DNA from: Lachnospiraceae bacterium
GTDB taxonomy: Bacteria; Bacillota; Clostridia; Lachnospirales; Lachnospiraceae
Direction of reading: 5' to 3'
Length of the DNA stretch: 64,000 nucleotides
NCBI GenBank assembly: GCA_045126475.1
Contig: JBGVOL010000067.1
Coordinates: 18,105-82,104, forward strand
Shown in pieces: positions 38,134-61,700 of the stretch. The notes under the pieces were generated by a model. It had not been told where the DNA came from, ran no database searches, and was given only the letters and a program-made list of their open reading frames with translations. The position numbers were made by a program, and so were the translations under genes. Each line of letters begins with the position of its first letter. The first letter of the stretch is position 1.

Positions 38134-38143
38134 AGGAGAATGT

Positions 38144-39232: not shown

Positions 39233-39242
39233 GAAGGTAAAT

Positions 39243-40717: not shown

Positions 40718-42163
40718 ATGGTAGTACAGCACAACATGACAGCGATGAACGCTAACAGAATGCTTGGTCTTACAACAGCCCAGCAGTCAAAGGCAACTGA
40801 AAAGTTATCATCTGGTTACAGAATCAACAGAGCAGCTGATGATGCAGCAGGTCTTTCTATCAGTGAGAAGATGAGAAAGCAGATTAACGGTCTTGACAGA
40901 GCTTCTACAAACGCAGAAGACGGTGTATCAGCAGTTCAGACAGCAGAAGGTGCGTTGAACGAAGTTCAGGACATGCTTCAGAGAATGAACGAGTTGGCAG
41001 TACAGGCAGCTAACGGTACAAACTCAGCAAATGACCGTGCATATCTTCAGTCAGAAATTGATCAGTTAGTAACTGAAATTGATCGTGTATCTGAGACAAC
41101 AAAGTTCAACGAGACATACCTCTTAAAGGGTGACGGCATTGGCGGTAAGTATGTAGAACTTGGAACAACAACTGGAATTACTGGAAGCTTTGCAGTAACA
41201 GGTGATCAGACAGGGGCGGCTACAGGAAAAGATTACTCTACAGATAGAGATGTAAAACTTAAGGCAACGAATGACCTTCAGTTTGGTGCAGAAGCAACAC
41301 AGAGTGTTACAGTAGCGGGTGCTTCATACCAGCTTAAAGATTATGCAGATCTTGAAGAACTGACTAGTGCAATTAGTAGTAACTCTAAAGTAAACAGTGT
41401 TGATATTGAGTATAAGAATAACGTAAGTGCATCGACAACAGATACAGCATATTCACTCACAAATACAAATAAGTCAACAACTGTTTCTGGTACAGTAACA
41501 TTTAAGGTTGCATCAAATACAACAACAGCTGCTACAGGACCATCAACTATTACAATTAACGATACAGAAAGCATAAGCATTAGTTTTACATTGGCAACAA
41601 AGATTGGAACTGACGGAAATATTGAGTTTGACGAGGAAACAACAAACCAGAACATTAAGACAGCTCTTAAGAATAAGAATATCAGCTATACAGAAGCTGA
41701 TGGTGTATTCTCTGTTAAACTCGGTGGTACTGTTACAGTAAATGCTGCAACTAAGGTTGATAACCTTGACTTTAACTTACATGTTGGTGCAGATTCATCT
41801 AATACAAACAAGATTGGTGTAAGCATCGCATCTATGAGTGCAGACGGACTTGGTATCTCTGGCGTTAGTGTATCATCTGAGAAGAATGCAACAAATGCTA
41901 TCGATGTAATAGCGGATGCTATCCAGAAGGTATCTAAGCAGAGATCAGACCTTGGTGCTGTTCAGAACAGACTTGAACACACAATCAACAACTTAGACAA
42001 CGTAGTAGAGAATACAACATCTGCTGAATCTCGTATCCGTGATACAGATATGGCAGAGCAGATGGTTAAGTACAGCAACTTAAATATCCTTGGACAGGCA
42101 GGTCAGTCAATGCTTGCACAGGCTAACCAGTCAAATCAGGGTGTACTCTCATTACTTGGCTAA
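40718..42163 (+). CDS. fliC: flagellin 1 (481 aa)
   Basis: MVVQHNMTAMNANRMLG...LSSGYRINRAADDAAGLSISEKMR...LQRMNELAVQAANGT and C-terminal RSDLGAVQNRLEHTINNLDN...MLAQANQSNQGVLSLLG. Ser/Thr-rich central domain. Confidence 0.95.
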   Translation: MVVQHNMTAMNANRMLGLTTAQQSKATEKLSSGYRINRAADDAAGLSISEKMRKQINGLDRASTNAEDGVSAVQTAEGALNEVQDMLQRMNELAVQAANGTNSANDRAYLQSEIDQLVTEIDRVSETTKFNETYLLKGDGIGGKYVELGTTTGITGSFAVTGDQTGAATGKDYSTDRDVKLKATNDLQFGAEATQSVTVAGASYQLKDYADLEELTSAISSNSKVNSVDIEYKNNVSASTTDTAYSLTNTNKSTTVSGTVTFKVASNTTTAATGPSTITINDTESISISFTLATKIGTDGNIEFDEETTNQNIKTALKNKNISYTEADGVFSVKLGGTVTVNAATKVDNLDFNLHVGADSSNTNKIGVSIASMSADGLGISGVSVSSEKNATNAIDVIADAIQKVSKQRSDLGAVQNRLEHTINNLDNVVENTTSAESRIRDTDMAEQMVKYSNLNILGQAGQSMLAQANQSNQGVLSLLG

Positions 42164-42212
42164 TCAAAATCACATAAGTAAGCCGTACATGCAATTGTAT
42201 GGCAGGGCTTTA

Positions 42213-42250
42213 AATCGCACGAGCAGAAAATCGCTCGTGCGATTTTTTTT
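42213..42250 (+). terminator. rho-independent terminator of flagellin 1
   Basis: ATCGCACGAGC / GCTCGTGCGAT stem followed by TTTTTTTT. Confidence 0.85.
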
Positions 42251-42271
42251 ACACAAAATTTCATATTGATG

Positions 42272-42298
42272 TAAATTAAAAAGAAGAAGTGCCGATAT
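42272..42298 (+). promoter_or_regulatory. sigma-D promoter of flagellin gene 2
   Basis: TAAA (42272-42275), 15 nt, GCCGATAT (42291-42298): a perfect match to the SigD consensus. Confidence 0.75.
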
Positions 42299-42400
42299 AA
42301 AATACAGAAGGTTATATGATATGTGGTATTGCCTAGGGTACGTTACATTCATATACCGGTCATGCTTTAATGCGTGACGATGCTAAAACAAATAGAAACG

Positions 42401-42462
42401 GGCGATAAGGATGTTGCCTATGTAGTCCATGCAGTATAAACTGCAGGATATATTCAAGGAGG
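42401..42462 (+). promoter_or_regulatory. CsrA-type GGA motifs in the flagellin-2 leader
   Basis: GGCGA-TAAGGATG-TTGCC hairpin, TGCAG/CTGCA stem followed by GGAT, and SD AAGGAGG (42456-42462). Confidence 0.45.
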
Positions 42463-42469
42463 AATAATT

Positions 42470-43927
42470 ATGGTAGTACAACACAATTTAACGGCTATGA
42501 ATGCCAACAGAATGCTTGGCCTTACAACAAGCAAACAGTCAAAAGCAACAGAGAAGTTATCATCTGGCTACAGAATCAACAGAGCAGCAGATGATGCAGC
42601 AGGACTTTCTATCAGTGAGAAGATGAGAAAGCAGATGAGAGGTCTTGACAGAGCTTCCACAAACGCTGAAGATGGTGTCTCATGTGTGCAGACAGCAGAA
42701 GGTGCGTTGAATGAAGTTCAGGACATGCTTCAGAGAATGAATGAGCTGGCAGTACAGGCAGCCAATGGTACAAACTCAGAGAATGACCGTTCATACCTTC
42801 AGTCGGAGATTGACCAGTTAGTAACTGAGATTGACCGTGTATCTGAGACAACAAAGTTCAATGAGACATACCTCTTAAAAGGTGACGGTGTTGGCGGAAA
42901 GTATGTAGAACTCGGTACGACTGACGATTGTACCAGTATTACATGTGCTACTGCAGATGACCAGACACCAGCGGCTACCGGAAAGGACTATTCTACAGAC
43001 AGGGATATAAGACTTATTGCCAATAACACCATACAGTTTGGTGAAGAGGCAACAGAGAGTATTACGGTTGCAGGCACCTCATACCAGCTTAAGGATTACG
43101 CAGACCTTGAAGATTTAACAAACGCTATCAGCAGTAACTCAAAGGTTAACAGCGTTGATATTGAGTACAAGAATAATGTAAGCGCGTCAAAAGGTACAGG
43201 CGGAAATGGGGATTTCACCCTTACACATACCAATAAGTCATCTACGGTATCAGGTACGGTAACATTTAAGGTTGCTTCAAATACTACAGCAAATGCCAGT
43301 GATTTATCACATATTGTAATTGATGATACACAGAATATTGCTATTGACTTTACTCTGGCTACGAAGATTGGTAACGATGGAAATATTGAGTTTGATGAAG
43401 CTACAACAAATCAGAACATCAAATCGGCTCTTAAGAATATGAACATAAGCTATACAGAAGCTGATGGTGTATTTTCAATCAATCTTGGAGGAACTGTTAC
43501 TGTAAATGCTGCGACTAAGGTGGATGATTTGGAGTTCAATCTTCATGTAGGTGCTGATTCATCAGGTGCCAATAAGATTGGCGTCAACATTGCATCTATG
43601 AGCGCAGACGGACTTGGTATTTCAGGCATAAGCGTTTCTTCTGAGAGAAACGCAACGGATGCTATCGATGTAATAGCAAATGCTATTCAGATGGTGTCAA
43701 AGCAGAGGTCTGATCTCGGTGCTATCCAGAACAGACTTGAGCACACAATCAACAACTTAGATAACATAGTAGAGAATACAACAGCTGCTGAATCTCGTAT
43801 CCGTGATACAGATATGGCAGAGCAGATGGTTGAGTACAGCAACTTAAATATCCTTGGACAGGCAGGTCAGTCAATGCTTGCACAGGCTAACCAGTCAAAT
43901 CAGGGAGTACTCTCATTACTTGGCTAA
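42470..43927 (+). CDS. fliC: flagellin 2 (485 aa)
   Basis: Same conserved N- and C-terminal flagellin domains as flagellin 1. The central domain is related to flagellin 1 but heavily substituted. Confidence 0.95.
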   Translation: MVVQHNLTAMNANRMLGLTTSKQSKATEKLSSGYRINRAADDAAGLSISEKMRKQMRGLDRASTNAEDGVSCVQTAEGALNEVQDMLQRMNELAVQAANGTNSENDRSYLQSEIDQLVTEIDRVSETTKFNETYLLKGDGVGGKYVELGTTDDCTSITCATADDQTPAATGKDYSTDRDIRLIANNTIQFGEEATESITVAGTSYQLKDYADLEDLTNAISSNSKVNSVDIEYKNNVSASKGTGGNGDFTLTHTNKSSTVSGTVTFKVASNTTANASDLSHIVIDDTQNIAIDFTLATKIGNDGNIEFDEATTNQNIKSALKNMNISYTEADGVFSINLGGTVTVNAATKVDDLEFNLHVGADSSGANKIGVNIASMSADGLGISGISVSSERNATDAIDVIANAIQMVSKQRSDLGAIQNRLEHTINNLDNIVENTTAAESRIRDTDMAEQMVEYSNLNILGQAGQSMLAQANQSNQGVLSLLG

Positions 43928-43997
43928 CAAATACTATAGATTATAATCTGATTGTTGATGTGCAATAATTGTGATTATATTCCTAGGTAAAGTGACA

Positions 43998-44024
43998 GAA
44001 CCCCGCCAAAATGGCGGGGTTTTG
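43998..44024 (+). terminator. rho-independent terminator of flagellin 2
   Basis: AACCCCGCC-AAAAT-GGCGGGGTT followed by TTG. Confidence 0.85.
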
Positions 44025-44063
44025 TTAGCAAAAGAAAAAATACATTTTTTTACAAAAAAACTA

Positions 44064-44090
44064 TAAAGTAAAAAAAAACACTGCCGATAT
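44064..44090 (+). promoter_or_regulatory. sigma-D promoter of flagellin gene 3
   Basis: TAAA (44064-44067), 15 nt, GCCGATAT (44083-44090): a perfect match to the consensus. Confidence 0.75.
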
Positions 44091-44185
44091 ATATGACATG
44101 AAGATGAAATAACAGCTTTAAATCACCTAGGGCAGATTGAAAGTGTTATCTTATCCATAACTGCAAGGAAGCGGAAAATTAAATC

Positions 44186-44249
44186 GGGCAAGGATGCTGA
44201 AACTAAAAAAATATTAAAGAAGGAATCTAAAAAAGGATTTTCAAGGAGG
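44186..44249 (+). promoter_or_regulatory. CsrA-type GGA motifs in the flagellin-3 leader
   Basis: GCA-AGGA-TGC mini-hairpin, then AGGAAT, AAGGAT and SD AAGGAGG (44243-44249). Confidence 0.4.
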
Positions 44250-44256
44250 AATTATT

Positions 44257-45711
44257 ATGGTAGTACAGCATAACCTTACAGCAATGAACGCAAACAGAAT
44301 GCTCGGTTTAACAACAGGCAAGCAGACAAAGGCAACAGAGAAGTTATCTTCCGGATACAGAATAAATAGAGCTGCAGATGATGCAGCAGGTCTCTCAATC
44401 AGTGAGAAAATGAGAAAGCAGATAAGAGGTCTTGACCAGGCTTCATCAAATGCAGAGGACGGAGTTTCTTGTGTACAGACAGCAGAAGGCGCACTTAATG
44501 AAGTACAGGATATGCTCCAGAGAATGAACGAACTTGCAGTACAGGCAGCTAATGGTACAAATTCGGAAAATGACCGCACATATATACAGTCAGAGATTGA
44601 CCAGCTTATTACAGAAATTGACCGTGTATCAGAGACAACAAAGTTCAATGAGACATACCTTTTAAAAGGTGATGGAATCGGTGGTAAATATACAGATATA
44701 GGCACAATAAGTGTGACAACAGGCGGAAGTATTTCTAAAAGCGCTGATCAGCAGGGAACTGTAGCGGGTCAGGATTACAAGACTGACAGAGATGCGGTGC
44801 TTGTTGCAGGTAATGATGTAAGATATGGTAAGAATGCAACTGAGACAATCGTGGTCGGTGGTATAGCATATGATCTCAAGGAGTATAAGGATCTTGATGA
44901 ACTTGCAGGGGCAATCAGCAGTAATAAAAAAATAAACAGTGTAGACCTAGTGTATAAAGATGGTGTATCAGCAGTAGCAAATACAGCAAAGGATGACTTT
45001 ACACTTACAAATACAAATAAGACAACAACTGTGTCAGGAGATATTACATTTAAGGTAACATCAAACTATACTGGAACATCAAAAGCAGCATCAATAGATA
45101 TTGAAGATGATGTTAAGATGACTGTAGACTTTACCCTTGCGACAAAAGTGGCAAAGGACGGAGGACTTGAGTTTGATGAGCAGACAACAATTAACAATAT
45201 TAAAGCAAATCTTGAGGCGAAGGGTTACAGTTATACAGAAAGTGATGGTGTATTTGTGGTTAAGGCAAAGGCTACAATGACCATAAATGCCGCATCTCAG
45301 GTTGATGATTTGAAGTTTAATCTTCATGTAGGTGCAGATGGAACATCAACAAATAAGATTGAAGTAAAGGTCGTTGCTCTAAGCTCAGATGGCCTCGGAA
45401 TATCGGGCTTAAATGTTGAGTCTGAAAAGAATGCAACTGATGCCATAAATATTATCGCAGATGCACTTCAGACTGTATCAAAACAGAGATCAGACCTTGG
45501 TGCTGCACAGAACAGATTAGAGCATACAATAAACAACCTTGATAATATTGTAGAAAATACAACAGCAGCCGAGTCACGTATCCGTGATACAGATATGGCA
45601 GAGCAGATGGTTGAGTACAGTAACCTTAATATCTTAGCGCAGGCAGGTCAGTCAATGCTTGCACAGGCTAATCAGTCAAATCAGGGAGTGCTCTCATTAC
45701 TTCAGGGTTAA
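44257..45711 (+). CDS. fliC: flagellin 3 (484 aa), most divergent central domain
   Basis: Conserved termini (MVVQHNLTAMNANRMLG..., ...MLAQANQSNQGVLSLLQG). The central ~200 aa differ clearly from flagellins 1 and 2. Confidence 0.95.
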   Translation: MVVQHNLTAMNANRMLGLTTGKQTKATEKLSSGYRINRAADDAAGLSISEKMRKQIRGLDQASSNAEDGVSCVQTAEGALNEVQDMLQRMNELAVQAANGTNSENDRTYIQSEIDQLITEIDRVSETTKFNETYLLKGDGIGGKYTDIGTISVTTGGSISKSADQQGTVAGQDYKTDRDAVLVAGNDVRYGKNATETIVVGGIAYDLKEYKDLDELAGAISSNKKINSVDLVYKDGVSAVANTAKDDFTLTNTNKTTTVSGDITFKVTSNYTGTSKAASIDIEDDVKMTVDFTLATKVAKDGGLEFDEQTTINNIKANLEAKGYSYTESDGVFVVKAKATMTINAASQVDDLKFNLHVGADGTSTNKIEVKVVALSSDGLGISGLNVESEKNATDAINIIADALQTVSKQRSDLGAAQNRLEHTINNLDNIVENTTAAESRIRDTDMAEQMVEYSNLNILAQAGQSMLAQANQSNQGVLSLLQG

Positions 45712-45737
45712 TATAAAATAAAAGAATCAGTTCATAA

Positions 45738-45769
45738 AGCTTCACTTTTGAATAGAGTGGAGCTTTTTT
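45738..45769 (+). terminator. rho-independent terminator of flagellin 3
   Basis: AGCTTCACT / AGTGGAGCT stem (one G-U pair) followed by TTTTTTG. Confidence 0.6.
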
Positions 45770-45844: not shown

Positions 45845-46615
45845 ATGAAGGTTGTAATATTAGCAGGTGGTTACGGAACAAGAATTTCAGAGGAGTCCCA
45901 CTTACGACCAAAGCCCATGATTGAAGTAGGTGAGAAACCTATTATATGGCATATAATGAAAATGTATGCTCATTATGGCTTTGATGAATTCGTTATATGC
46001 GCCGGATATAAGCAGCAGATTATAAAGGAATGGTTTTCAAATTATTTTCTTTATAACAGCGATATTACCTTTGATTTTACTGACAATAATAGGATGATAG
46101 TTCATAATAATGTTGCGGAACCTTGGAAAGTAACTATTATTGACACTGGAATAAATACTATGACAGGTGGACGAATCAAGAGAATACAGAAGTTTATAGG
46201 CGACGAGACATTTTTAATGACATATGGTGATGGCGTGTCAGATGTAGACATAAGAAATGTTGTGGAGTTTCATAAAAAGAAAGGGGGTTATGCGACTCTT
46301 ACCGCAGTACAGCCTGAGGGTAGATTTGGAAATATTGATATTGAAAATGGTAAGATTAAGTCGTTTAGGGAGAAAGATAAGCACGATATGGGGTGGATAA
46401 ATGGTGGTTTTATGGTGTTAGAACCTAGTGTTTTTAATTATATTAGTGGTGATAGCACTATATTTGAACAAGAACCATTGGAAAAAATGGCTAATGAAGG
46501 ACAGCTTAATAGTTTTAAGCATTATGGATTTTGGCAGTGTATGGACACGATGAGGGATCATGAAAAATTGGAAGAATTATGGGCAGCCGGGATTGCCCCG
46601 TGGAAGGTTTGGTAG
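45845..46615 (+). CDS. rfbF: glucose-1-phosphate cytidylyltransferase (RfbF/DdhA-type)
   Basis: Co-linear by memory with Salmonella RfbF: MKVVILAGGYGTRISEE..PKPMIEVGEKPIIWHIMKMY...MTGGRIKR...TYGDGVSDVDI...INGGFMVLEPSV...FWQCMDTMRD...APWKVW. Confidence 0.9.
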   Translation: MKVVILAGGYGTRISEESHLRPKPMIEVGEKPIIWHIMKMYAHYGFDEFVICAGYKQQIIKEWFSNYFLYNSDITFDFTDNNRMIVHNNVAEPWKVTIIDTGINTMTGGRIKRIQKFIGDETFLMTYGDGVSDVDIRNVVEFHKKKGGYATLTAVQPEGRFGNIDIENGKIKSFREKDKHDMGWINGGFMVLEPSVFNYISGDSTIFEQEPLEKMANEGQLNSFKHYGFWQCMDTMRDHEKLEELWAAGIAPWKVW

Positions 46616-46736
46616 GGGGGGCTTTGAATAATATTTAAACTTTTGAATGAATATGTAAATAAAGTCAAGTGGTAATAGTGACTTTTTATGAAAAACTGAT
46701 ATAATTAAATAGAGAGAAAAAAGGAGGAAAGTACAT

Positions 46737-47561
46737 ATGGCAACAAAAATAATTGCAGAAATTGGAATTAATCATAACGGAGATATAAGTCTTGCTAAAA
46801 AAATGATAGATTTGGCTGTGATAGCAGGTTGTGATGCAGTAAAGTTTCAGAAGAGAACAGTGGATAAAGTATATACAAAGGAATATTTGGATGGATACAG
46901 AGAGAGTCCATGGGGAACAACACAAAGAGAGCAAAAAGAAGGTCTGGAGTTTTCTTATGATGAGTACAGTGAGATTGACAGATATTGTAAAGAAAAAAAG
47001 ATAGATTGGTTTGCTTCAGCGTGGGATATAGATTCACAGAAATTTTTGCAAAAATTTGATTTGAAGTATAATAAAGTAGCATCAGCAATGCTTACAAATG
47101 ATGAACTTTTAGAGGAAATAGCAAAAGAAGGCAGATATACATATATTGCTACAGGTATGAGCACATATGAGGAAATTGATCATGCAGTTGAGGTATTCAA
47201 CAAAAAAAATTGTCCGTATGAAATTATGCACTGTAACAGCACATATCCTATGAAGAATCAAGATGCTAATATAAGTTTAATTCCTGTTTTGAGAGAAAGA
47301 TATAGATGTAATATAGGATATAGCGGTCATGAGTCAGGATATTTAGCAAGCCTTGTTGCAGTTTCTTTGGGAGCAACATCAATCGAAAGGCATATTACAA
47401 TGGACAAGAATATGTATGGAAGTGATCAGAAAGCATCGATTGAACCATCAGAACTGATTTTAATGGTTAAAGAAATACGTGAGATAGAAAAGATACTTGG
47501 AGATGGTCAAAAAGTATTATCTGAAGCAGAAAATGAAGTAAAGAAGAAGTTAAGAGGTTAG
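46737..47561 (+). CDS. NeuB-family (sialic/ulosonic acid synthase-like) enzyme lacking the C-terminal SAF domain
   Basis: IIAEIGINHNGDISLAKKMIDLAVIAGCDAVKFQKR...HCNSTYP...GYSGHE...IERHIT. The protein ends (274 aa) where NeuB/PseI/LegI enzymes start their SAF/antifreeze-like domain. Confidence 0.75.
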   Translation: MATKIIAEIGINHNGDISLAKKMIDLAVIAGCDAVKFQKRTVDKVYTKEYLDGYRESPWGTTQREQKEGLEFSYDEYSEIDRYCKEKKIDWFASAWDIDSQKFLQKFDLKYNKVASAMLTNDELLEEIAKEGRYTYIATGMSTYEEIDHAVEVFNKKNCPYEIMHCNSTYPMKNQDANISLIPVLRERYRCNIGYSGHESGYLASLVAVSLGATSIERHITMDKNMYGSDQKASIEPSELILMVKEIREIEKILGDGQKVLSEAENEVKKKLRG

Positions 47562-47562
47562 G

Positions 47563-48615
47563 ATGATAAAACTTGTAGTTTTTGATATTGACGGAGTTCT
47601 TACTGATGGTACAGTTATTATAGGTGAGGATGGTCATGAACAGAAAAAGATTAATTTAAGAGATATAGATGCAGTATACCAAATTCATAGGCAGGGTTTT
47701 AAAATTGCTGCGATTACAGGAGAAGAAACAAGTATAGTTGGATATTTTGAAAAAAGATTTCCATGGGAGCATTTTGTTAAAGGGTGCAAAAATAAAGTTG
47801 ATGCGCTTAAAAAAATATGTGATAAGTGTGATGTAAAAGCAGATGAAATATGTTATGTAGGTGATGGAAAATATGATATTGAGCCGCTTTGTTTTGCAGG
47901 TATCGGAATATGCCCATCAGATGCTATAGATGATGCAAAAAAAAATGCTGATATAATATTAAAATCATCTAGCGGTACAGGCGGATTATGGGAAATCATT
48001 TCTATATTACATGACATAAATGATGAAAATAGTGCAGGTAACTACTTCTTTGATAGAGTTTTTAAACATGCAGAGATTTTTAAAAAGATGTCATCAGATG
48101 TTGATATGAGAGATAAGGTAATGAAGGTTGCAGAGAATGTTATTAACATTCAGAAAAATGGAGGACAGGTTTTTCTTTGTGGAAATGGAGGGAGTGCAGC
48201 TGATGCACAACATATTGCAACTGAATTTATTAGTAGATTTTATAAGGACAGACCTGCTATGAATGCGGAAGCATTATCGGTCAATACATCTACACTCACG
48301 GCTGTTAGTAATGACTACAGTTACGATAGAGTTTTTGTAAGACAATTGCAAGCTAAAGCCAGAACAGGGGATATGCTTATCGGAATATCTACCAGTGGTA
48401 AGTCAAAGAATGTTATTGAAGCATTAAGATATGCAAAAAATAATGGTGTATTTACGGTTATGCTTATGGGAGAATTTTGTTATAGGGAACTAGATGAAAT
48501 TTGTGATGTTATAATAAAAGTTCCATCAATAGATACACCTAGAATTCAGGAAGCCCATATTTTTATCGGGCATTTGATTGCAGAATATGTGGAATATGTT
48601 CTATATGGAAACTGA
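47563..48615 (+). CDS. fusion protein: KdsC/YrbI-type HAD sugar-phosphate phosphatase (N) + GmhA-type SIS phosphosugar isomerase (C)
   Basis: N-half VVFDIDGVLTDG...AAITGEE...YVGDGKYDIEPL. C-half FLCGNGGSAADAQHIATEF...NDYSYDRVF.RQ...GDMLIGISTSGKSKNVIEAL...RIQEAHIFIGHLI is co-linear with E. coli GmhA by memory. Confidence 0.8.
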   Translation: MIKLVVFDIDGVLTDGTVIIGEDGHEQKKINLRDIDAVYQIHRQGFKIAAITGEETSIVGYFEKRFPWEHFVKGCKNKVDALKKICDKCDVKADEICYVGDGKYDIEPLCFAGIGICPSDAIDDAKKNADIILKSSSGTGGLWEIISILHDINDENSAGNYFFDRVFKHAEIFKKMSSDVDMRDKVMKVAENVINIQKNGGQVFLCGNGGSAADAQHIATEFISRFYKDRPAMNAEALSVNTSTLTAVSNDYSYDRVFVRQLQAKARTGDMLIGISTSGKSKNVIEALRYAKNNGVFTVMLMGEFCYRELDEICDVIIKVPSIDTPRIQEAHIFIGHLIAEYVEYVLYGN

Positions 48616-48627
48616 AGGAGTTAGAGA

Positions 48628-50373
48628 ATGATAAAGGTTTCAGATTATGTATATGAATTTTTAAAGGAAAAGAAAGTCGAACATGTTTTTATGCTTCCAG
48701 GTGGTGGAGCCATGCATCTGGTTGATTCTCTCGGAAAGTCAGGAATTAATTATATATGTTTCCAGCATGAACAGGGCGCTTCAATTGCAGCAGAGGCTTA
48801 TGGACAGCATACTAACAAGCCGGGGGTGGTTTTAACTACATCAGGTCCCGGAGCGACAAATGCTATTACGGGTGTTACAGCGGGATGGATTGATTCTACG
48901 CCAATGATTGTTATATCTGGACAGGCAAAAAGATGCGATTTGGTAGGAAGCAAGGGAGTTAGACAAATAGGATCTCAAGAAGTACAGGTAGTAGATATGG
49001 TTAAGTCTATTACAAAATATGCTGTAGAGGTAATGAATCCAATAGATATCAAATACCATCTGGAAAGGGCATATTATGAGGCTACAACTGGAAGACCGGG
49101 GCCTGTATGGCTGTCTATTCCTTTAGACGTTCAAGGGGCATTTGTTGATAAGAATGGTCTTAGAGGATATGAACAAGTATATAAAAATAATCAGGAAGAT
49201 TTTGACGAGAAAATAAATCATATAGTTAATTGTATTTATAATTCCAGAAAACCGCTTATCATAGCGGGAAATGGTATTAAGTTATCAGGAGCTACAAGGG
49301 AATTTTATAAGTTTATAGAAAAATTAAATATTCCTGTGATTACTACATGGAAAACTATTGATATGTTTGATGAAAATTATAAATTGTATATTGGCCATCC
49401 TGGAATAATGGGTGACAGAGCAACTAATAAGCTGATTCAAGAAGCAGACTTGCTCATATCAATTGGAAGCAGATTAGACACAAGTATTACAGCATTTGAT
49501 GAGCCAAACTTTGCAAAAAATGCAAAAAAAATTATTATTGATATAGATGAAAATGAAATAAAAAGAATGAACATGGAAAAAGAGGTTTGGATGGCATGTG
49601 ATGCAAAGTGTGTTCTGTTAGCTCTAAATTCCAAGATTGGAGGAAAGTTTAATGTAAACCAATGGTTAGATTATTGCAGACAAATGAGAAAAAAGTACCC
49701 TGTTATAACGTCAAAACATAGGGATACAGGGAATTATGTCAGTGCATATTATTTTATTGAAGAATTATGTAGACTTTTAAGGGATGATGATGTTATAGTG
49801 CCAGAAAGCTCTGGAGCAGCAGGAGAAATAACATATCAGGCATTTAAGATAAAACAAGGACAGAAGATGAAAAATGCAGCAGGACTTGGCTCTATGGGAT
49901 TTGGACTTCCGTATGCAATAGGTTCGTGCATTGCCAATGATAAAAGAAGAACTATTCTTATAAATGGAGATGGTGCGTTTCAATTAAATATTCAAGAACT
50001 AGAGACGTTGCACAGGCTAGCACTTCCTGTAAAAATTTTTATTTGGAATAATAATGGGTATGCAAGCATTAGAAGTATGCAGAGAGGGAATTTTGATGGA
50101 CATTATGTTGCTAGCAATGAAGAGAGTGGATTCTCAGTTCCAAATTGTACAAAAATTGCTGCTGCTTATGGATTTGAAACTTGCACAATATCAGATAATG
50201 ATGAAATGTTAGAAAAATTGCCACGAATTCTCGCTGATGATAGAATGATATTATGTGAAGTTATTATTTCTCCTGATGAAACCGTTTGGCCAAGAGTAAA
50301 AGCTAAAATCTTACCGGATGGAGGTATGAAATCAGGAGCTTTAGAAGATATGTGGCCATATGAGGAGAATTAG
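48628..50373 (+). CDS. thiamine-diphosphate-dependent enzyme, acetolactate-synthase-like fold
   Basis: N-terminal PYR domain (FMLPGGGAMHLVD...TSGPGATNAITGVTAGWIDSTPMIVISGQ) and C-terminal ThDP motif (GLGSMGFGLPYAIG...INGDGAFQLNIQEL...IWNNNGY). Confidence 0.8.
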   Translation: MIKVSDYVYEFLKEKKVEHVFMLPGGGAMHLVDSLGKSGINYICFQHEQGASIAAEAYGQHTNKPGVVLTTSGPGATNAITGVTAGWIDSTPMIVISGQAKRCDLVGSKGVRQIGSQEVQVVDMVKSITKYAVEVMNPIDIKYHLERAYYEATTGRPGPVWLSIPLDVQGAFVDKNGLRGYEQVYKNNQEDFDEKINHIVNCIYNSRKPLIIAGNGIKLSGATREFYKFIEKLNIPVITTWKTIDMFDENYKLYIGHPGIMGDRATNKLIQEADLLISIGSRLDTSITAFDEPNFAKNAKKIIIDIDENEIKRMNMEKEVWMACDAKCVLLALNSKIGGKFNVNQWLDYCRQMRKKYPVITSKHRDTGNYVSAYYFIEELCRLLRDDDVIVPESSGAAGEITYQAFKIKQGQKMKNAAGLGSMGFGLPYAIGSCIANDKRRTILINGDGAFQLNIQELETLHRLALPVKIFIWNNNGYASIRSMQRGNFDGHYVASNEESGFSVPNCTKIAAAYGFETCTISDNDEMLEKLPRILADDRMILCEVIISPDETVWPRVKAKILPDGGMKSGALEDMWPYEEN

Positions 50374-50382
50374 CATAGTGAT

Positions 50383-51414
50383 ATGAAAAAAAATAAATGG
50401 ATAACAATATGGAGTTATGCTCAAAGAAAAACTACTTTTACTCGCTGGGAAAATCAGAATAGTTTTGAAATCAGATTTAAAAATAATATTGAAGGAACTA
50501 AAGTTAGAATAAGATTCAGCAATTGGTATGGTGTTCACGACACAGGCATTAAAAGTGTATATATGTTGTATGAGGGTCGTAGATACGTTACAAAATGTAA
50601 TAATGAAGAAAGATTTAGGGTTTTTCCTGATAGCGATTTAACATCAGATTATATTGAAATACATGTGGTCCCAGGAACAAATATAGGTGTGGTGGTAGAA
50701 TTTGAAAGTTTTATTAGGCCAGACTCCGGAAATACATTTGATGGTTGTATAGCAATGATTCTTCAGTCTGTAGATGTGTATACAGATAGTAAGGTGTCGG
50801 GGGTAGCATTTTTTGGAGATAGTATAACTCATAGAAGAAAATGGACAGAGCCACTTATAGATATGTGGTACGAGAAGTACAGAGGGATGATTGTAGCTTA
50901 TGAGGTGTCGATAGATGGTTCCAGGCTGTTAAAAGATTCACCGAAAGAATGTGATAACACGTTGGGTTTTTCGGCAAGAGCAAGATTTAGTCATGACATA
51001 CTAAAAAATAATGGTATTACACATATTTTTTTTGAATTAGGATTAAATGACTTGTCGCTTGAAGATATTGATAATACGTTGTCAGTGGATAATTTGATTA
51101 AAGAGATGAAAGAAATTGTTAATATGGCTCACGAACACAACATTATGGTAATTGGGATGACAATCACACCTCGAAGAGAAGACCATATATATGATTATAA
51201 AAGAAATAATATGAGAAAAAAAGTAAACGAAATAATATTGAATGGGCACATCTTTGATAAAGTAATAGATATATCTGGATTGCTTGGAAATGAGGATGAT
51301 ACTCAGTTGAGTCCTGAGTATGGATGTGAAGACGGAGTTCATTTGAATAATAAAGCAGGAGAATTTCTGTCAAAGTATATTTATAACAATATATCAGAAG
51401 ATATTCTCTTCTAA
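50383..51414 (+). CDS. SGNH/GDSL-type hydrolase with N-terminal beta-rich domain
   Basis: Block I AFFGDSITH, block III GLNDL, block V DGVHLN. Confidence 0.7.
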   Translation: MKKNKWITIWSYAQRKTTFTRWENQNSFEIRFKNNIEGTKVRIRFSNWYGVHDTGIKSVYMLYEGRRYVTKCNNEERFRVFPDSDLTSDYIEIHVVPGTNIGVVVEFESFIRPDSGNTFDGCIAMILQSVDVYTDSKVSGVAFFGDSITHRRKWTEPLIDMWYEKYRGMIVAYEVSIDGSRLLKDSPKECDNTLGFSARARFSHDILKNNGITHIFFELGLNDLSLEDIDNTLSVDNLIKEMKEIVNMAHEHNIMVIGMTITPRREDHIYDYKRNNMRKKVNEIILNGHIFDKVIDISGLLGNEDDTQLSPEYGCEDGVHLNNKAGEFLSKYIYNNISEDILF

Positions 51415-51429
51415 AGGAGAACAGAGATA

Positions 51430-52539
51430 ATGAAGAAGGTAATACTATATGGTGCAGGCACTCAAAATTTGCGAATGGCATTTCAGCCTATAGTTTCAGC
51501 GGGATATGAGGTTTTTGCAATTGTTGATAAAGATAGACAAAAACAAGGGAAAGACTTTTATGGTGTAGAAATCAATGCACCAGAAATAATAAAAAGTATT
51601 AAAGAAAATGCAGATGATTATCAGATAGTGGTTACCATTAGAACAGAAGAAACTGTACTTGAAGTAAAAGAATATTTAAAACAGATTACGAGTATTCGTG
51701 TTTATTCATTTAGTGAGTTTATTGAAAATGAAAAGCTAAACAGTAAGATTAAGAGATTTTCCTGCGTTATGTTTCATTTGGTAGATCACTGTAATATGTC
51801 TTGTGTTAGATGTTCGCACTTTTCACCATTGGCAAAGAAAAACGGGTATTATTTGTCACTTGATGAGTTTGAAAGAGATATTAAAAGGCTGAAGATACTT
51901 ACAAATGGAGATATAGATGAGATTCAGTTATCGGGTGGAGAACCATTACTGCATCCTCAAGTACATATTTTCCCTTATATTGTGCATAAGTATTTTCCGG
52001 ATACTCAGATAATAATTATAACAAATTCAATAAAAATTAAAGATATGGGTCGGGACTTTTTTGATTCATGCAGAGCAAATAAAGTAAATATATGGATATC
52101 CAGATATCCAATTGGATTGGATTATGGTGCAATAATGAAGAGATTGGAGGAAGAGGAAATATATGCTATCTTCGGAAATTCTGGAAATTCAGACAATAAG
52201 CCGAAAGAGATGTGGGGTTTACCAATGAAACTTGATGGTGGGCTTGATGGAAGAAAGAATTTTGATTGTTGCCTTTGCATGCAATATATTCTGAGAAACG
52301 GAATTATGTACCCATGTGCGAATAGTGCGTATATTGATTTGTTCAATGAATATTTCGATAAGAAATTACCAGGACCGCAAGTAAATGGTGTTGATATATA
52401 TAAAGTCAGGAATATGGAGGAATTGGCAAGAGAAATATCAAGGCCGGTTCCACTTTGTGACTATTGTGATGCAAAACACCGAAAAAGTGGAATACCATGG
52501 TGTGTGTCAAAGAAAGATATTGAAGAATGGACTATATAG
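51430..52539 (+). CDS. radical SAM enzyme (twitch/SPASM-like C-terminus) with N-terminal GxG Rossmann-like module
   Basis: N-module KKVILYGAGTQN...FAIVDKDRQKQGKDFYGVEINAPEII. Radical SAM triad HCNMSCVRC (CX3CX2C). Auxiliary CMQYILRNGIMYPC (C-X7-G-X4-C) and CDYCD. Confidence 0.8.
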   Translation: MKKVILYGAGTQNLRMAFQPIVSAGYEVFAIVDKDRQKQGKDFYGVEINAPEIIKSIKENADDYQIVVTIRTEETVLEVKEYLKQITSIRVYSFSEFIENEKLNSKIKRFSCVMFHLVDHCNMSCVRCSHFSPLAKKNGYYLSLDEFERDIKRLKILTNGDIDEIQLSGGEPLLHPQVHIFPYIVHKYFPDTQIIIITNSIKIKDMGRDFFDSCRANKVNIWISRYPIGLDYGAIMKRLEEEEIYAIFGNSGNSDNKPKEMWGLPMKLDGGLDGRKNFDCCLCMQYILRNGIMYPCANSAYIDLFNEYFDKKLPGPQVNGVDIYKVRNMEELAREISRPVPLCDYCDAKHRKSGIPWCVSKKDIEEWTI

Positions 52540-52549
52540 TGGAGGTTAT

Positions 52550-53716
52550 ATGAGTGTAGAAGAAAAAGCTGTTAGCATTGTAGGGGAAAAATATTTATTG
52601 GGATATGAATTTTATAGAAATCAAGGAATGAAAAGTTTTTTTCAAATTAAGAGGGAACAATATAAATATATGTGTATATTTGGAGCCGGAGTTCTCGGAA
52701 CTACATTGTGCAGATGGCTTAAGAATAATGGAATAGAGGTTGATTATTTCTGTGATAATAATAGAGATAGGGACAGCGCGAGAATTATGGATATTCCTTA
52801 TATAACATTTGAAGAACTTGAAGAGATTAAAAATGATGTATATGTTATGGTTTCTGTAACAAATAAGGGATGCGGTAAGAAGTATAATGAAGAGATAAAT
52901 AATCAGTTAAAAGGATTTCCGAATGTTATGCCTAATATATTGCAGTTTATTGGCTTTTATACTAATGACTATAAACTAAATTATGATATATGTATAAAGT
53001 ATGTAGAGAAAATAGTATCAACGCTGGAAGACAATAAGTCAAAAGAATTATTTCTTGAAAATCTAAAATACAAATTTATATCAGATGGTGAACCTGTTTC
53101 ATACAATACTTTGGAGAAGTTCTATAGTCCTGTTCAATACTTTTCGGAAGAATATTATAAAAATACTTCAGATGCGGTTATTGTAGACTGTGGAGCATAT
53201 AAAGGAGATACACTTTTGGAGTATATTAACCTTTTTGGAGATGAATTCACAGAATATCATTGTTTTGAAATGGATGTTGAAGCATTAGAAAAATTAAAAG
53301 TAAATGTGTCAAAACTTCCTTTGAAGATAAAGAGTAAAGTTAAGATACATCCATATGGTGTGTACAAAGAAAGAGGAGAAGCCTATTATGATATATCCAC
53401 GGAAACATTGGCATCTTGTATAAGTGAAACTGGTCAAATGAAGGCTAAATTGATTTCATTGGATGAGGAATTATATGAAAACAGGGTGACTATGATAAAT
53501 ATGGATATAGAAGGCTCTGAGTTATCGGCCCTTCAAGGTGCTGATAAAATTATTAAAAGGTGTAAGCCAATGCTTGCAATAAGTATATACCACTCTACGG
53601 AGCAATTTTTAGGTGTACCATTTTATCTGATGAATAAGTACCCATTTTATAAATACTATATGGGACTACATACTACTATAACAGATGACTGTGTATTATA
53701 TGCGGTTCCAAAGTAA
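52550..53716 (+). CDS. FkbM-family methyltransferase with N-terminal GxG Rossmann-like module
   Basis: Start moved to MSVEEK (ATG at 52550, GGAGG 5 nt upstream). N-module YMCIFGAGVLG...DYFCDNNRDRDSARIMDIPYITFEEL. FkbM motifs VIVDCGAYKGDT and INMDIEGSELSALQGA. Confidence 0.75.
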   Translation: MSVEEKAVSIVGEKYLLGYEFYRNQGMKSFFQIKREQYKYMCIFGAGVLGTTLCRWLKNNGIEVDYFCDNNRDRDSARIMDIPYITFEELEEIKNDVYVMVSVTNKGCGKKYNEEINNQLKGFPNVMPNILQFIGFYTNDYKLNYDICIKYVEKIVSTLEDNKSKELFLENLKYKFISDGEPVSYNTLEKFYSPVQYFSEEYYKNTSDAVIVDCGAYKGDTLLEYINLFGDEFTEYHCFEMDVEALEKLKVNVSKLPLKIKSKVKIHPYGVYKERGEAYYDISTETLASCISETGQMKAKLISLDEELYENRVTMINMDIEGSELSALQGADKIIKRCKPMLAISIYHSTEQFLGVPFYLMNKYPFYKYYMGLHTTITDDCVLYAVPK

Positions 53717-53737: not shown

Positions 53738-54748
53738 ATGGTAAAACGAGATAGGTTAGAATATTCTAATTTGAGAACTAGATTAGAAGAAGCGGTTCCA
53801 TTGCCCGCACCATTTGTTGTTTTTTTAGATCCATGTGGTGCCTGCAATTTTTTTTGTAAGTTTTGTCCATGCAATAATAGCGATTTCATGAGAGAACAGA
53901 GGCATGAAAAAATGTCCATGGAATTATTCTATAAAATTCTTAATGACCTTGAAGAATTCACTGAAAAGGTAAAAGTTATAAATTTGTATGGATTTGGAGA
54001 GCCACTGTTACATCCTCAATATATTGAAATGATAAAAGAGATAAAGGATAGAAATATTTGTCGAGAACTTAGGTGTACTACAAACGGATTTCTTTTATCG
54101 GAGCAAATGAACAAAAAACTAGTAGAGGCAGGAATTGATATGGTTAGAATATCGGTAGAGGCTCTAAATAGTAAAGATTATTTAGACATTTGTAATGTGA
54201 AGATAGATTTTGAACAATTTGTCAGAAACATAAAAAATTTGTATGAAATAAGCAGAGGAACAAGTACAAAGGTTTCTGTTAAAATTTTAAATGTTGCTCT
54301 TAAAGATGACAATGATGCCAACAGATTTTATGATATTTTTGAACCTATATCAGATTATACATATATTCAGGATACTACACAGGCATGGTCTGAGTTTGAT
54401 GCCTATGTACCTGAGAATAATTATAGTGCAGGTAACATTGGAGATATGAAAGATGAGGACAAAATATGCTCGTTTGCTTTAACTAATATGGCCATTCATT
54501 CAAATGGAAGTGTGGGTGTATGTCCTCAAGATTGGAAATTTGCAACCGAATATGGAAGTGTTAAAAACACATCGCTTAAAGATTTATGGGATTCAAATAA
54601 GCTTTTGGGATTTAGAGTTGCACATTTAAGTGGAAATAGGAGAAAAATTCCATATTGCAAAGATTGTGATGTTTGCGTGTCTAATGATGATGTAAGAAAA
54701 AGTGCAGACATAATAATTAAAAGATTAAAAGATAATAAAAATAGGTGA
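53738..54748 (+). CDS. radical SAM/SPASM-type enzyme (no N-module)
   Basis: FLDPCGACNFFCKFCP (CX3CX2C). C-terminal CSFALTNMAIHSNGSVGVC (C-X12-G-X4-C) and PYCKDCDVC. Confidence 0.8.
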   Translation: MVKRDRLEYSNLRTRLEEAVPLPAPFVVFLDPCGACNFFCKFCPCNNSDFMREQRHEKMSMELFYKILNDLEEFTEKVKVINLYGFGEPLLHPQYIEMIKEIKDRNICRELRCTTNGFLLSEQMNKKLVEAGIDMVRISVEALNSKDYLDICNVKIDFEQFVRNIKNLYEISRGTSTKVSVKILNVALKDDNDANRFYDIFEPISDYTYIQDTTQAWSEFDAYVPENNYSAGNIGDMKDEDKICSFALTNMAIHSNGSVGVCPQDWKFATEYGSVKNTSLKDLWDSNKLLGFRVAHLSGNRRKIPYCKDCDVCVSNDDVRKSADIIIKRLKDNKNR

Positions 54749-54753: not shown

Positions 54754-55602
54754 ATGACAGCATTTGAACAGATGACGAAGATAATCGAAAGGCTAATACA
54801 AGATGGCTGCAAAAATTTTATTATTTACCCATATGGTATACCAGGTAAAGCTGTGCATAGAATTCTTATTGAAAAGTATGGTATAGAGCCGGTAGCAATT
54901 ATTGATGAAAAAAAAGCAACGGATGATGGTAAAATATGTAAATCAGAGCATCTTGATAGTATTGATGGAGGGGTAGTTCTTGTAGCAACAAAAAATCCTG
55001 AATGTTTGAAAGAAATTAAAGAAAAAGTAAAGGAAAAAGGTCAACGGTTCAGAGTTGAAGATGTATTACCTGTCGAGGTTGGCAGACATACATGGGGGGA
55101 AGGTATATTACCAGAATGCTCTGGATTTACAATAGAGAGAATAGGTTCTTTTTGTAGTTTCGCTAAGGGTTCGTGTGTAGTTGGAAATCATCAGATTGAT
55201 ACTGTATCCTCTAGTGCTTTATTCAATGGAATTAATTTAGATGGTGCAGATATTTTTAAGGAAAAGTGTGAAAATGTAAAACTTGGGGATATGACAGACG
55301 TAAAGAGATGTATCATAGGAAATGATGTTTGGCTTGGACGCAATGTAATTGTGTGCAATGGTGCAATAATAGGAGATGGAGTTGTGGCGGCGGCAGGAGC
55401 TGTTATAACGAAAGATGTTCCGGACTATGCGATTGTAGGCGGGGTTCCGGCGAAAATCATAAAGTATAGATATTCAGAAGAACAGATAAAAAAGTTGAAG
55501 AAAATAAAATGGTGGGATTGGAGCGATGAAAAGATTGTAGATAATTTTGAAGATTTTCATAATATAGAACGATTTTTAGATAAGCATTACCGAGATGAAT
55601 AA
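54754..55602 (+). CDS. CatB/Vat-type (XAT) hexapeptide acetyltransferase with N-terminal Rossmann-like module
   Basis: N-module NFIIYPYGIPGKAVHRIL...VAIIDEKKATDDGK. LbH repeats IGNDVWLGRNVIVCNGAIIGDGVVAAAGAVITKDVPDYAIVGGVPAKIIKYRY and tail KIKWWDWSDEKI. Start taken at ATG 54754 (AGGTGA upstream); GTG 54745 is possible. Confidence 0.8.
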   Translation: MTAFEQMTKIIERLIQDGCKNFIIYPYGIPGKAVHRILIEKYGIEPVAIIDEKKATDDGKICKSEHLDSIDGGVVLVATKNPECLKEIKEKVKEKGQRFRVEDVLPVEVGRHTWGEGILPECSGFTIERIGSFCSFAKGSCVVGNHQIDTVSSSALFNGINLDGADIFKEKCENVKLGDMTDVKRCIIGNDVWLGRNVIVCNGAIIGDGVVAAAGAVITKDVPDYAIVGGVPAKIIKYRYSEEQIKKLKKIKWWDWSDEKIVDNFEDFHNIERFLDKHYRDE

Positions 55603-61692: not shown

Positions 61693-61700
61693 AGGTATAT

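Follow-up and report, generated by a model that had tools for sequence, protein, structure and literature searches.

A SAF-less NeuB-like synthase, a KdsC::GmhA fusion and a YerE/JanthE-like thiamine diphosphate enzyme form a recurrent cassette, found beside flagellin genes in a Lachnospiraceae genome

A stretch of 64,000 nucleotides from an uncultured, gut-type Lachnospiraceae bacterium (GenBank assembly GCA_045126475.1, contig JBGVOL010000067.1, positions 18,105 to 82,104; hereafter the window) carries, next to three flagellin genes, four consecutive open reading frames (ORFs) on the plus strand, with ends at 45845-46615, 46737-47561, 47563-48615 and 48628-50373, as first described. They encode an RfbF-type glucose-1-phosphate cytidylyltransferase, a NeuB-like, phosphoenolpyruvate (PEP)-dependent synthase devoid of the SAF domain, a fusion of a KdsC-type phosphatase to a GmhA-type isomerase, and a thiamine diphosphate (ThDP) enzyme with the fold of acetohydroxyacid synthase (AHAS). 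Gaps between the ORFs measure 121, 1 and 12 nt, a spacing typical of operons. The synthase and the fusion are two translationally coupled genes encoding a three-enzyme unit, similar in logic to the Kdo and Kdn pathways and built from different parts. We propose, with a probability of about 0.45 for the chain as a whole, that an ulosonic acid made by this unit serves as acyl donor for the YerE-type branching of a nucleotide sugar intended for a flagellin glycan. The step by which the ThDP enzyme consumes the ulosonic acid of the module is, taken alone, probable.

The four gene identities of the original prediction are borne out by profile and PDB matches. The RfbF protein (256 aa) matches TIGR02623 with 416.9 bits, above the curated equivalog cutoff of 300.25 (residues 1-256 on model positions 1-255), and aligns end to end with Salmonella RfbF (1tzf; E 6e-101). 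These matches mark it as a bona fide RfbF/DdhA equivalog, predicted to make CDP-glucose. The NeuB-like protein (274 aa) is matched by the whole Pfam NeuB domain (PF03102, 1-241 of 241; 246.8 bits), the TIM barrel with its catalytic motifs. It covers positions 2-274 of the 329 of the NeuB model (263.2 bits, cutoff 399.65), and positions 2-273 of the 327 of the PseI model (187.6 bits, cutoff 340.25). The protein has no SAF domain, nor room for one, because the fusion gene begins 2 nt past its stop codon. The best solved relative, 6ncs, is also short (290-aa chain), and PDB alignments to 6ncs and 8h2c span residues 5-265. The enzyme is proposed to condense PEP with an aldose phosphate.

Residues 2-153 of the fusion protein (350 aa) match the KdsC/YrbI subfamily model TIGR01670 (98.4 bits, cutoff 106.95) as well as NF058599, which describes KDN-9-P phosphatase; residues 193-344 match the GmhA model TIGR00441 (166.7 bits, cutoff 209.45). 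PDB matches are GmhA 2x3y (E 4e-50) and 3e81 (E 1e-19), a chain deposited as 'acylneuraminate cytidylyltransferase', which we take to be the KDN-9-P phosphatase of B. thetaiotaomicron. Residues D8, D10, T52, K78, D101 and D105 in the phosphatase half, of the haloacid dehalogenase (HAD) type, and residues H217, E221, Q329 and H337 in the GmhA half are invariant among 12 homologues; the latter four presumably correspond to the zinc-binding and catalytic positions seen in GmhA structures. Database relatives of the fusion number in the thousands, and the best 150 representatives include about 48 clusters at 50% identity. The label 'non-canonical', originally given to the module in view of the pathways of pseudaminic (Pse) and legionaminic (Leg) acid, should not be taken to mean that it is rare. 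The top 120 relatives, from Butyrivibrio, Roseburia, metagenome-assembled genomes of Lachnospiraceae and Clostridium chromiireducens, all measure 347-363 aa and carry both domains.

Loci related to the window, denoted by L-numbers, were collected from species-representative genomes, from contigs encoding the listed homologues, and by scanning metagenomes with the HAD half of the fusion. Hosts are Lachnospiraceae and Clostridium genomes and metagenome assemblies. In locus L172 KdsC and GmhA are encoded by separate adjacent genes. Among the best 150 representatives, clustered at 50% identity, the domain order is KdsC-GmhA in 48 and GmhA-KdsC in 3. The independent fusion of the two domains in both orders argues that their activities belong to one pathway. 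The reverse-order proteins are P0255, P0283 and P0291 of the representative library. In another member, P0290 (473 aa), a KdsC-type domain is joined to a region resembling short-chain dehydrogenases/reductases (SDR), and the top 150 also hold nucleotidyltransferase-GmhA (HddC-like) fusions of the ordinary heptose pathway.

The ThDP enzyme (581 aa) features all three TPP domains in Pfam, an HEQ motif at about residue 47 and the signature GDGAFQ...NNNGY. It shows the hallmarks of YerE-like enzymes, namely the decarboxylase-superfamily fold, the GDG...NN motif and the cofactor-activating Glu. Among curated families AHAS scores best, and the protein lies below every AHAS cutoff (best TIGR00118, 392.6 against 538.35). 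When the PDB was searched with phmmer, the two best solved relatives were JanthE (8rph, 351 bits) and PpYerE (5ahk, 266 bits), ahead of plant AHAS (about 245-249 bits), which agrees with the YerE precedent named in the original prediction. Aligned to Arabidopsis AHAS, the enzyme has Thr, Ser and Met at three positions which we take to be D376, R377 and W574, respectively; R377 of AHAS presumably binds the acceptor carboxylate. Neither an AHAS small subunit nor an ilv gene turned up in domain scans of the window. Judged from its sequence, the product of 48628-50373 is not a biosynthetic AHAS.

The structure 8rph has been identified as JanthE (PMC12188165), and YerE-like enzymes are the only subclass of the decarboxylase superfamily known to accept isolated ketones (PMC12247030). 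ErwE, MMAR_2332 and MyGE take hydroxylated 3-deoxy-2-keto acids (C4-C8) as donors (PMC9306805, Steitz et al. 2022). In the general branching scheme proposed there, the keto acid comes from an aldolase and is joined by the ThDP enzyme to CDP-4-keto-3,6-dideoxyglucose, after which a reductase completes the branch; clusters for acyl-branched sugars contain the aldolase, the ThDP enzyme, the reductase and ddh genes (PMC9306805).

For a census of gene neighbours, loci with at least 3 kb of upstream and 5 kb of downstream sequence were kept and collapsed at 90% fusion identity, leaving 30 loci; homologues were counted as tblastn hits in flanks of up to 10 kb. NeuB-like genes, 64-78% identical to the window gene, accompany KdsC and GmhA in all 30, and all encode 274 aa in annotated loci. 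The AHAS-like ThDP enzyme is present in 27/30, FkbM methyltransferases in 22/30. Orthologues of a 288-aa SDR encoded at the end of the island, and radical S-adenosylmethionine (SAM)/SPASM enzymes, were each found in 11 loci, RfbF in 9, RfbG in 4, RfbH in 3, CMP-transferases in 3, Maf in 4, flagellin in 3, and DmpG-type aldolases in none. In a genome scan with the alignment of the full-length fusion, matches to the generic GmhA motif SAADAQHI prevailed, and only 6 of the 80 loci returned were fusions; the other 74 served as a negative control. No NeuB-like, KdsC or ThDP neighbour was found at any of these 74 standalone-GmhA loci (p = 6e-22), while 24 of them show a distant nucleotidyltransferase match (mostly 21-34% identity to RfbF, HddC-like). 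The core of the cassette is made by the NeuB-like synthase, KdsC/GmhA and the ThDP enzyme. RfbF, found in less than one third of the loci, is not part of the core and counts as an accessory. Compared with the window enzyme, the ThDP proteins of related loci form subgroups of 60-67%, 43% and 33-34% identity. Since NeuB-like proteins are far better conserved, a constant donor combined with variable acceptors may be envisaged.

According to the gene that accompanies the module, the 30 loci are sorted into 26 with the ThDP enzyme only, 2 with a CMP-transferase only, 1 with both and 1 with neither (Fisher p = 0.02). Two of the three loci without a ThDP gene carry a CMP-transferase, L110 being the exception. 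In the locus that has both (L009), the CMP-transferase lies 8 kb away, beside a NeuB::cupin gene of its own and a Maf gene. Proteins in which a NeuB domain is fused to a C-terminal cupin (507 aa) are encoded in L009 (80-3634), beside CTP_transf_3 and Maf-like genes, and in L011 (1-846), and represent a second, different non-canonical NeuB architecture in the same islands.

The divergent loci L172/L174, L180 and L183/L184 contain, in this order, KdsC/GmhA, a NeuB-like gene (67-71% identical to that of the window) and a CMP-transferase homologue, and no ThDP gene. PF02348 was confirmed for the CMP-transferase genes of L172 and L184. L172/L174 have individual genes for KdsC and GmhA; L180 and L183/L184 encode a fusion (L172:4562-13350, L184:9992-16423). 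These loci also encode a xylose-isomerase-like TIM barrel, between the NeuB-like gene and the CMP-transferase, and further along a class-III aminotransferase, a glyoxalase-like protein and a methyltransferase, and a Maf-like protein in L172/L174; the set looks like an uncharacterised pathway for a CMP-activated, aminated higher-carbon ulosonic acid. As the same module sits beside a CMP-transferase in these relatives, and CTP_transf_3 enzymes activate ulosonic acids, the data suggest that the module makes a free 2-keto-3-deoxy (ulosonic) acid for which two alternative consumers exist, the ThDP enzyme and the CMP-transferase. The order proposed at the outset, isomerase, PEP condensation, phosphatase, gains comparative support from the same arrangement. 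Because the two genes behave as alternatives, the ThDP enzyme would replace the activating enzyme as consumer of the acid. So far the CMP-activated form is the only one in which ulosonic acids have been observed (bioRxiv 10.64898/2026.04.20.719630), and at the genetic level the cassette is an exception to this rule.

The absence of Pse/Leg-type genes, already remarked upon, was confirmed in the window both by domain scans and by tblastn. Domain scans (Pfam or NCBIfam) of 53 ORFs of the window, which comprise essentially every larger, gene-like one, and of two genes past its end detected no 4,6-dehydratase, DegT or CTP_transf_3 protein. tblastn with RfbG, RfbH, DegT and CMP-transferase probes from related loci gave no match in the window, and a Firmicute CMP-transferase probe found no homologue in the window or in L090. 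The latter is an identical Logan contig extending 2.3 kb past the window; two Logan contigs reach there, and both stop about 500 nt after the island end. The additional 2.3 kb hold the rest of a 766-aa family 2 glycosyltransferase (GT2), the 288-aa extended SDR, and non-coding sequence with a terminator-like hairpin. No dehydratase, DegT, CMP-transferase or Pse/Leg gene lies between the window end and the island end; the canonical pse/leg or CDP-dideoxyhexose genes that might have been expected just downstream are thus not there. The CDP-3,6-dideoxyhexose set (RfbG and RfbH beside RfbF), present in L096, L163 and L089, was not found here. In L009, where tailoring genes are closest to those of the window (50-75% identity), RfbG is located between RfbF and the NeuB-like gene. 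Inspection by eye against L009 revealed no obvious remnant of rfbG in the 121-nt spacer found at this position in the window; the spacer contains an AAGGAGG motif resembling a ribosome-binding site, and a promoter-like site.

In the pathway we favour, the GmhA domain would convert sedoheptulose-7-phosphate to D-glycero-D-manno-heptose-7-phosphate, the SAF-less synthase would condense the latter with PEP, and the KdsC-type domain would remove the terminal phosphate. The outcome would be a 3-deoxy-2-ulosonic acid in free form, probably C10. In the lineage of the window this acid would be used without CMP activation by the adjacent YerE/JanthE-like enzyme, which may decarboxylate it and add a polyhydroxy-acyl unit to the keto group of a nucleotide sugar. 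The scheme would correspond to the known route to acyl-branched sugars (erwiniose, caryophyllose, gastriose), with a PEP-dependent ulosonate module replacing the pyruvate aldolase. The acceptor probably derives here from CDP-glucose made by RfbF. The 288-aa SDR at the island end is, from its context, a candidate 'YerF-like' reductase of the branch carbonyl. Tailoring of the sugar would fall to methyl-, acetyl- and pyruvyl-transferases and the radical SAM enzymes, and GT2 enzymes would attach it to flagellin, which is quite likely the glycan target in this island.

Support for the scheme comes from clusters for acyl-branched sugars (yersiniose, erwiniose, caryophyllose and gastriose, with YerE, ErwE, MMAR_2332, MyGE and JanthE; PMC9306805). 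These share with the island an AHAS-fold ThDP carboligase, an extended SDR, RfbF and glycosyltransferases, and the donors proposed for them, hydroxylated 3-deoxy-2-keto acids, belong to a chemical class that includes ulosonic acids. The likeness is closer in L096 and L163, which feature the order RfbF-RfbG-RfbH-NeuB-like-fusion-ThDP, and in L089, which has the same gene set; in all three the full RfbF-RfbG-RfbH set is directly upstream, as in the JanthE locus. RfbF, CDP-glucose 4,6-dehydratase and RfbH of L096 are above NCBIfam cutoffs (393, 433 and 718 bits). The JanthE locus (L098:6805-15782; Janthinobacterium sp. HH01, AMWD01000002.1) reads RfbF-RfbG-RfbH-JanthE-SDR-acetaldehyde dehydrogenase-DmpG aldolase-SDR-GT2, and a Pseudomonas relative adds an E3-type reductase. 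The slot filled by the aldolase in L098 and other JanthE-type clusters is occupied in L096 and L163 by the NeuB-like/fusion pair, and the DmpG aldolase module and the NeuB-like/fusion module never co-occur (0/30 cassette loci). Although the physiological substrates of JanthE have been reported as unidentified, its gene neighbourhood has the features of an erwiniose-type cluster, and suggests 4-hydroxy-2-oxovalerate and a CDP-keto-deoxyhexose as native substrates.

In contrast to these clusters, the cassette has no pyruvate aldolase (DmpG/HpaI type) or acetaldehyde dehydrogenase, but the NeuB-like and KdsC::GmhA genes in their slot; the proposed donor, about C10, is longer than the C4-C8 acids described; the window is devoid of RfbG and RfbH; and radical SAM/SPASM enzymes and FkbM methyltransferases recur in cassette loci. 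Hosts of the cassette are Firmicutes, and the setting in the window is a flagellin island, not a lipopolysaccharide or lipooligosaccharide locus. The cassette at large is not confined to flagellin settings, since in L096 it adjoins a Polysacc_synt flippase gene and spore genes.

Several observations weigh against the proposed chain. CDP-glucose 4,6-dehydratase and RfbH were not found in the window or up to the island end, and going by the genes present no known route to the keto acceptor appears to be encoded in this interval; the layout with RfbF and without RfbG is seen also in L011. No RfbF-like nucleotidyltransferase is found within 10 kb in 21/30 cassette loci. Because two thirds of the loci lack such a gene, acceptors must often come, if the scheme holds, from housekeeping nucleotide sugars. 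The ThDP enzyme is 31-33% identical to each of JanthE, PpYerE and plant AHAS, so that identity does not separate them, and the small neighbour-joining tree built for ThDP enzymes had a single AHAS outgroup. The 288-aa SDR is only 22% identical to the SDR beside JanthE, and the two are not orthologous. The co-occurrence counts were obtained by tblastn in loci that are not phylogenetically independent. A C9 acyl branch would to our knowledge exceed any described, and we know of no glycan structure for these bacteria.

As to the keto group, one may speculate that it is made by the radical SAM/SPASM enzymes. A bolder version of the scheme, which we hold doubtful, would extend to gut and rumen Lachnospiraceae and some clostridia: a C10 acid derived from sedoheptulose-7-phosphate would be the ThDP-activated donor for a C-branched nucleotide sugar of about 15 carbons on flagellin, larger than caryophyllose and gastriose, and, where RfbG is missing, radical SAM/SPASM enzymes with nucleotide-sugar-binding N-terminal domains would make the keto acceptor. 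A keto acceptor formed in this way would be a new entry into keto-sugar chemistry.

The genes may be explained in other ways. The original prediction viewed the ulosonic acid and a CDP-linked branched hexose as separate products. The acid would then be activated by a CMP-transferase encoded elsewhere, and RfbF and the YerE-like enzyme would make an acetyl-branched CDP-hexose from pyruvate, the substrate used by YerE itself. RfbF is a true equivalog, the CMP-type relatives show that the product of the module can be CMP-activated, and C10 CMP-ulosonic acids have newly been reported in Magnetospirillum. Nevertheless, the ThDP gene tracks the NeuB-like/fusion pair (27/30) and not RfbF (9/30), and ThDP enzyme and CMP-transferase are near-exclusive alternatives. 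Two products would moreover leave two gaps instead of one, as a 4,6-dehydratase for a YerE-type acceptor is not found either, while the CMP-transferase probes detected nothing in the window or L090, and homologues in only 3/30 loci. These patterns, together with the synteny at the aldolase slot, make one convergent pathway likelier, and two independent products unlikely. The missing CMP-transferase is accounted for if the acid is an acyl donor, because only this use yields a nucleotide-activated product without an extra activating enzyme. The same consideration bears on a scheme in which the ThDP enzyme consumes the ulosonic acid otherwise, by adding hydroxyethyl-ThDP from pyruvate onto its C2 keto group in AHAS style, or by plain decarboxylation to a 2-deoxy-aldose, attachment following by other chemistry. 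Such a product would have no nucleotide handle, and neither a kinase nor a suitable activating enzyme is encoded. Tight genetic coupling of ThDP gene and module would fit this scheme too, as would the AHAS fold, the AHAS score among curated families and the lack of NDP-keto-sugar genes in most loci. On the other hand, the presumed acceptor-carboxylate Arg of AHAS is Ser here, acceptors of the best solved relatives are ketones and their donors keto acids, and complete ddhABC sets lie directly upstream in L096, L163 and L089. Consumption of this kind is improbable.

The lack of RfbG might also mean that the pathway is incomplete or decaying in this strain, the island being L009-like minus the CDP-glucose 4,6-dehydratase, and no branched sugar being made. 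L009 shares the tailoring genes and has RfbG, as would be expected. Decay is highly improbable, however, as all island ORFs are intact and tightly spaced, the same island has been assembled from five independent sequencing runs, L011 shares the layout, the spacer bears no obvious RfbG remnant, and an rfbG gene may lie elsewhere in the genome. The order of steps does not follow from gene coupling alone, and the ThDP enzyme could in principle act upstream, building an unusual ketose phosphate by a transketolase/DXS-like ligation prior to SIS isomerisation and PEP condensation. The SIS domain, however, matches GmhA structures (E 4e-50) and keeps the zinc and catalytic residues, which points to sedoheptulose-7-phosphate, a central metabolite available without a pathway of its own. 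In CMP-type relatives the module operates with no ThDP enzyme, and the end product would still be left without activation. An upstream role of the ThDP enzyme has hardly any probability. Use of the ulosonic acid as acyl donor is the reading retained.

Three further pathways resemble the island in part. With the Kdo and Kdn routes (KdsD-KdsA-KdsC-KdsB; Bacteroides Kdn-9-P enzymes) the cassette shares the logic of a sugar-phosphate isomerase, a PEP condensation and a C0-type HAD phosphatase, whose best solved relative here is 3e81, and Kdn-9-P synthesis relies on a NeuB-type synthase, as in the cassette. In contrast, the isomerase is here of the GmhA (heptose) and not the KdsD type, and is fused to the phosphatase; the synthase has no SAF domain; and the defining KdsB/NeuA CMP-transferase is not found in the island, which has a ThDP enzyme instead, and occurs in a divergent minority of relatives. 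Pse/Leg flagellin islands are similar in the flagellin-adjacent position, the presence of a NeuB-family synthase and the many tailoring enzymes. They differ because PseB/LegB dehydratase, PseC/LegC aminotransferase, PseF/LegF CMP-transferase and Maf are not found here, and the synthase without SAF domain is below the PseI and NeuB equivalog cutoffs. Common to the nucleotide-heptose pathway (GmhA, kinase, GmhB, HddC/HldE) and the island are an isomerase of the GmhA type, its catalytic residues conserved, and, nearby, a HAD phosphatase and a sugar-1-phosphate nucleotidyltransferase. As an explanation of the genes (GmhA plus GmhB plus HddC) it was rejected: a heptose kinase is absent, the HAD domain belongs to the KdsC and not the GmhB type, and the nucleotidyltransferase is an RfbF equivalog and not HddC.

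Features of the window are listed in Table 1. Genes for FlgK, FlgL, FliW, FlaG and FliD precede the flagellins, and three GT2 genes sit between late flagellar genes and flagellins. The 645-aa GT2 gives a weak match to the SunS family of S-glycosyltransferases, the last of the three (414 aa) a weak TPR match. The three are candidate flagellin glycosyltransferases; the location of three transferases directly upstream of three tandem flagellin paralogues is suggestive, and the flagellins are likely glycosylation targets. A predicted hairpin 3' of the third flagellin gene appears to separate the flagellin unit from the island. The G+C content drops at the island start, from about 0.38-0.43 upstream to 0.31-0.35 in the island (46000-64000), and the genes of the island vary greatly from one related locus to another. 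Both features are consistent with a hypervariable, horizontally exchanged glycosylation island. Homologues of the radical SAM/SPASM enzymes recur downstream of the ThDP gene in related loci. PglD_N/C2185-like N-terminal domains, which may bind nucleotide sugars, mark some radical SAM enzymes (51430-52539, 58205-59545) and FkbM methyltransferases (52550-53716, 55630-56727) as well as the free-standing 134-aa protein (57801-58205), and the combination recurs in most related loci.

Table 1. Features of the window and of the adjoining end of the island
Feature	Position	Strand	Basis
Housekeeping, chemotaxis and defence-like genes	1-19 kb		
MreB, rod genes, RecD2, then late flagellar genes	19-36 kb		
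Three paralogous GT2 glycosyltransferases (645, 362, 414 aa)	36196..40466	+	Pfam Glycos_transf_2 in all three
Three tandem flagellin genes (481, 485, 484 aa)	40718..45711	+	typical flagellin N-/C-terminal regions in translations
Terminator-like hairpin 3' of third flagellin gene	45736..45766	+	13-bp stem, then T run; consensus match only
RfbF-type glucose-1-phosphate cytidylyltransferase	45845..46615	+	TIGR02623 above cutoff; 1tzf match
SAF-less NeuB-family PEP-dependent synthase, 274 aa	46737..47561	+	PF03102 full length
Fusion, N-terminal half: KdsC/YrbI-type (C0 HAD) ulosonate-phosphate phosphatase domain	47563..48030	+	TIGR01670, NF058599, 3e81
Fusion, C-terminal half: GmhA-type sedoheptulose-7-phosphate isomerase (SIS_2) domain	48040..48615	+	TIGR00441, 2x3y
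YerE/JanthE-like ThDP-dependent carboligase, AHAS fold	48628..50373	+	three TPP domains; best PDB matches JanthE, PpYerE
GDSL-family esterase/acylhydrolase (tailoring enzyme)	50383..51414	+	Pfam Lipase_GDSL_2; orthologue in L009
Radical SAM enzyme, faint C2185-like/PglD_N-type N-terminal domain	51430..52539	+	Pfam Radical_SAM; 65%-identical orthologue in L009
FkbM-family methyltransferase	52550..53716	+	Pfam Methyltransf_21; start per identical Logan contig, mechanical ORF starts at 52385
Radical SAM/SPASM enzyme	53738..54748	+	Pfam Radical_SAM and SPASM; 75% identical in L009
Hexapeptide-repeat acyltransferase	54754..55602	+	Pfam Hexapep; NCBIfam Vat/CatB-like O-acetyltransferase matches all below cutoff
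FkbM methyltransferase with C2185-like N-terminal domain	55630..56727	+	domain scans
Polysaccharide pyruvyl transferase family protein	56738..57808	+	PF04230, 117.9 bits
Small PglD_N/C2185-like protein, 134 aa, free-standing	57801..58205	+	domain scan
Third radical SAM enzyme	58205..59545	+	domain scan
714-aa protein (weak HAD_2 match only) and 229-aa protein	59548..62390	+	229-aa: below-cutoff serine/colanic-acid acetyltransferase models
766-aa GT2 glycosyltransferase, first two thirds inside window	62445..64000	+	Pfam; gene table of identical contig L090
288-aa extended SDR, beyond window	would be 64910-65776	+	identical contig; then terminator-like hairpin, island end

Some features outside the island deserve mention. 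RecD2 matches proteins from metagenome-assembled genomes of Lachnospiraceae at 83% and at about 70-73% identity. A 651-aa protein (7819-9774) combines 4Fe-4S ferredoxin motifs, a Fe-only-hydrogenase large-subunit domain and a methyl-accepting chemotaxis signalling domain, and looks like a hydrogenase-like sensory chemoreceptor; a second, short protein with a methyl-accepting chemotaxis signalling domain is encoded at 9867-10685. The region 10862-18255 (G+C 0.34-0.37), which includes a DUF4143/NERD ATPase, three GNAT acetyltransferases, and an AAA_21 (AbiEii-like) ATPase with a RloB-like protein, probably represents a defence or mobile islet. Positions 27048-30491 hold two FlgK-like genes in a row, for hook-associated proteins of 638 and 504 aa, ahead of the FlgL-like gene.

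The cassette is widespread in gut Lachnospiraceae, yet uncharacterised. No description of it was found in the literature on flagellin glycosylation together with heptose isomerase or AHAS, on ulosonic acids together with ThDP, and on Lachnospiraceae flagellin glycans, a coverage from which one in-silico survey of YerE-like clusters is excluded. If correct, the proposed pathway would join ulosonic acid biosynthesis and ThDP-dependent sugar branching, so far separate fields, and would predict a class of very large branched sugars. It would provide a testable function for thousands of genes annotated as 'SIS domain-containing protein', 'N-acetylneuraminate synthase family' or 'thiamine pyrophosphate-binding protein', and for biocatalysis the ThDP enzymes would offer new carboligases that act on polyhydroxylated donors of long chain length. 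Flagellar O-glycosylation is listed for only seven genera of Gram-positive bacteria in a 2026 survey (PMC13317340). The cassette resides in flagellated Lachnospiraceae, such as Roseburia, Butyrivibrio, Acetatifactor and relatives. Flagellins of these bacteria are prominent TLR5 ligands and gut antigens, and an unusual glycan on them could affect immune recognition, phage adsorption and motility.

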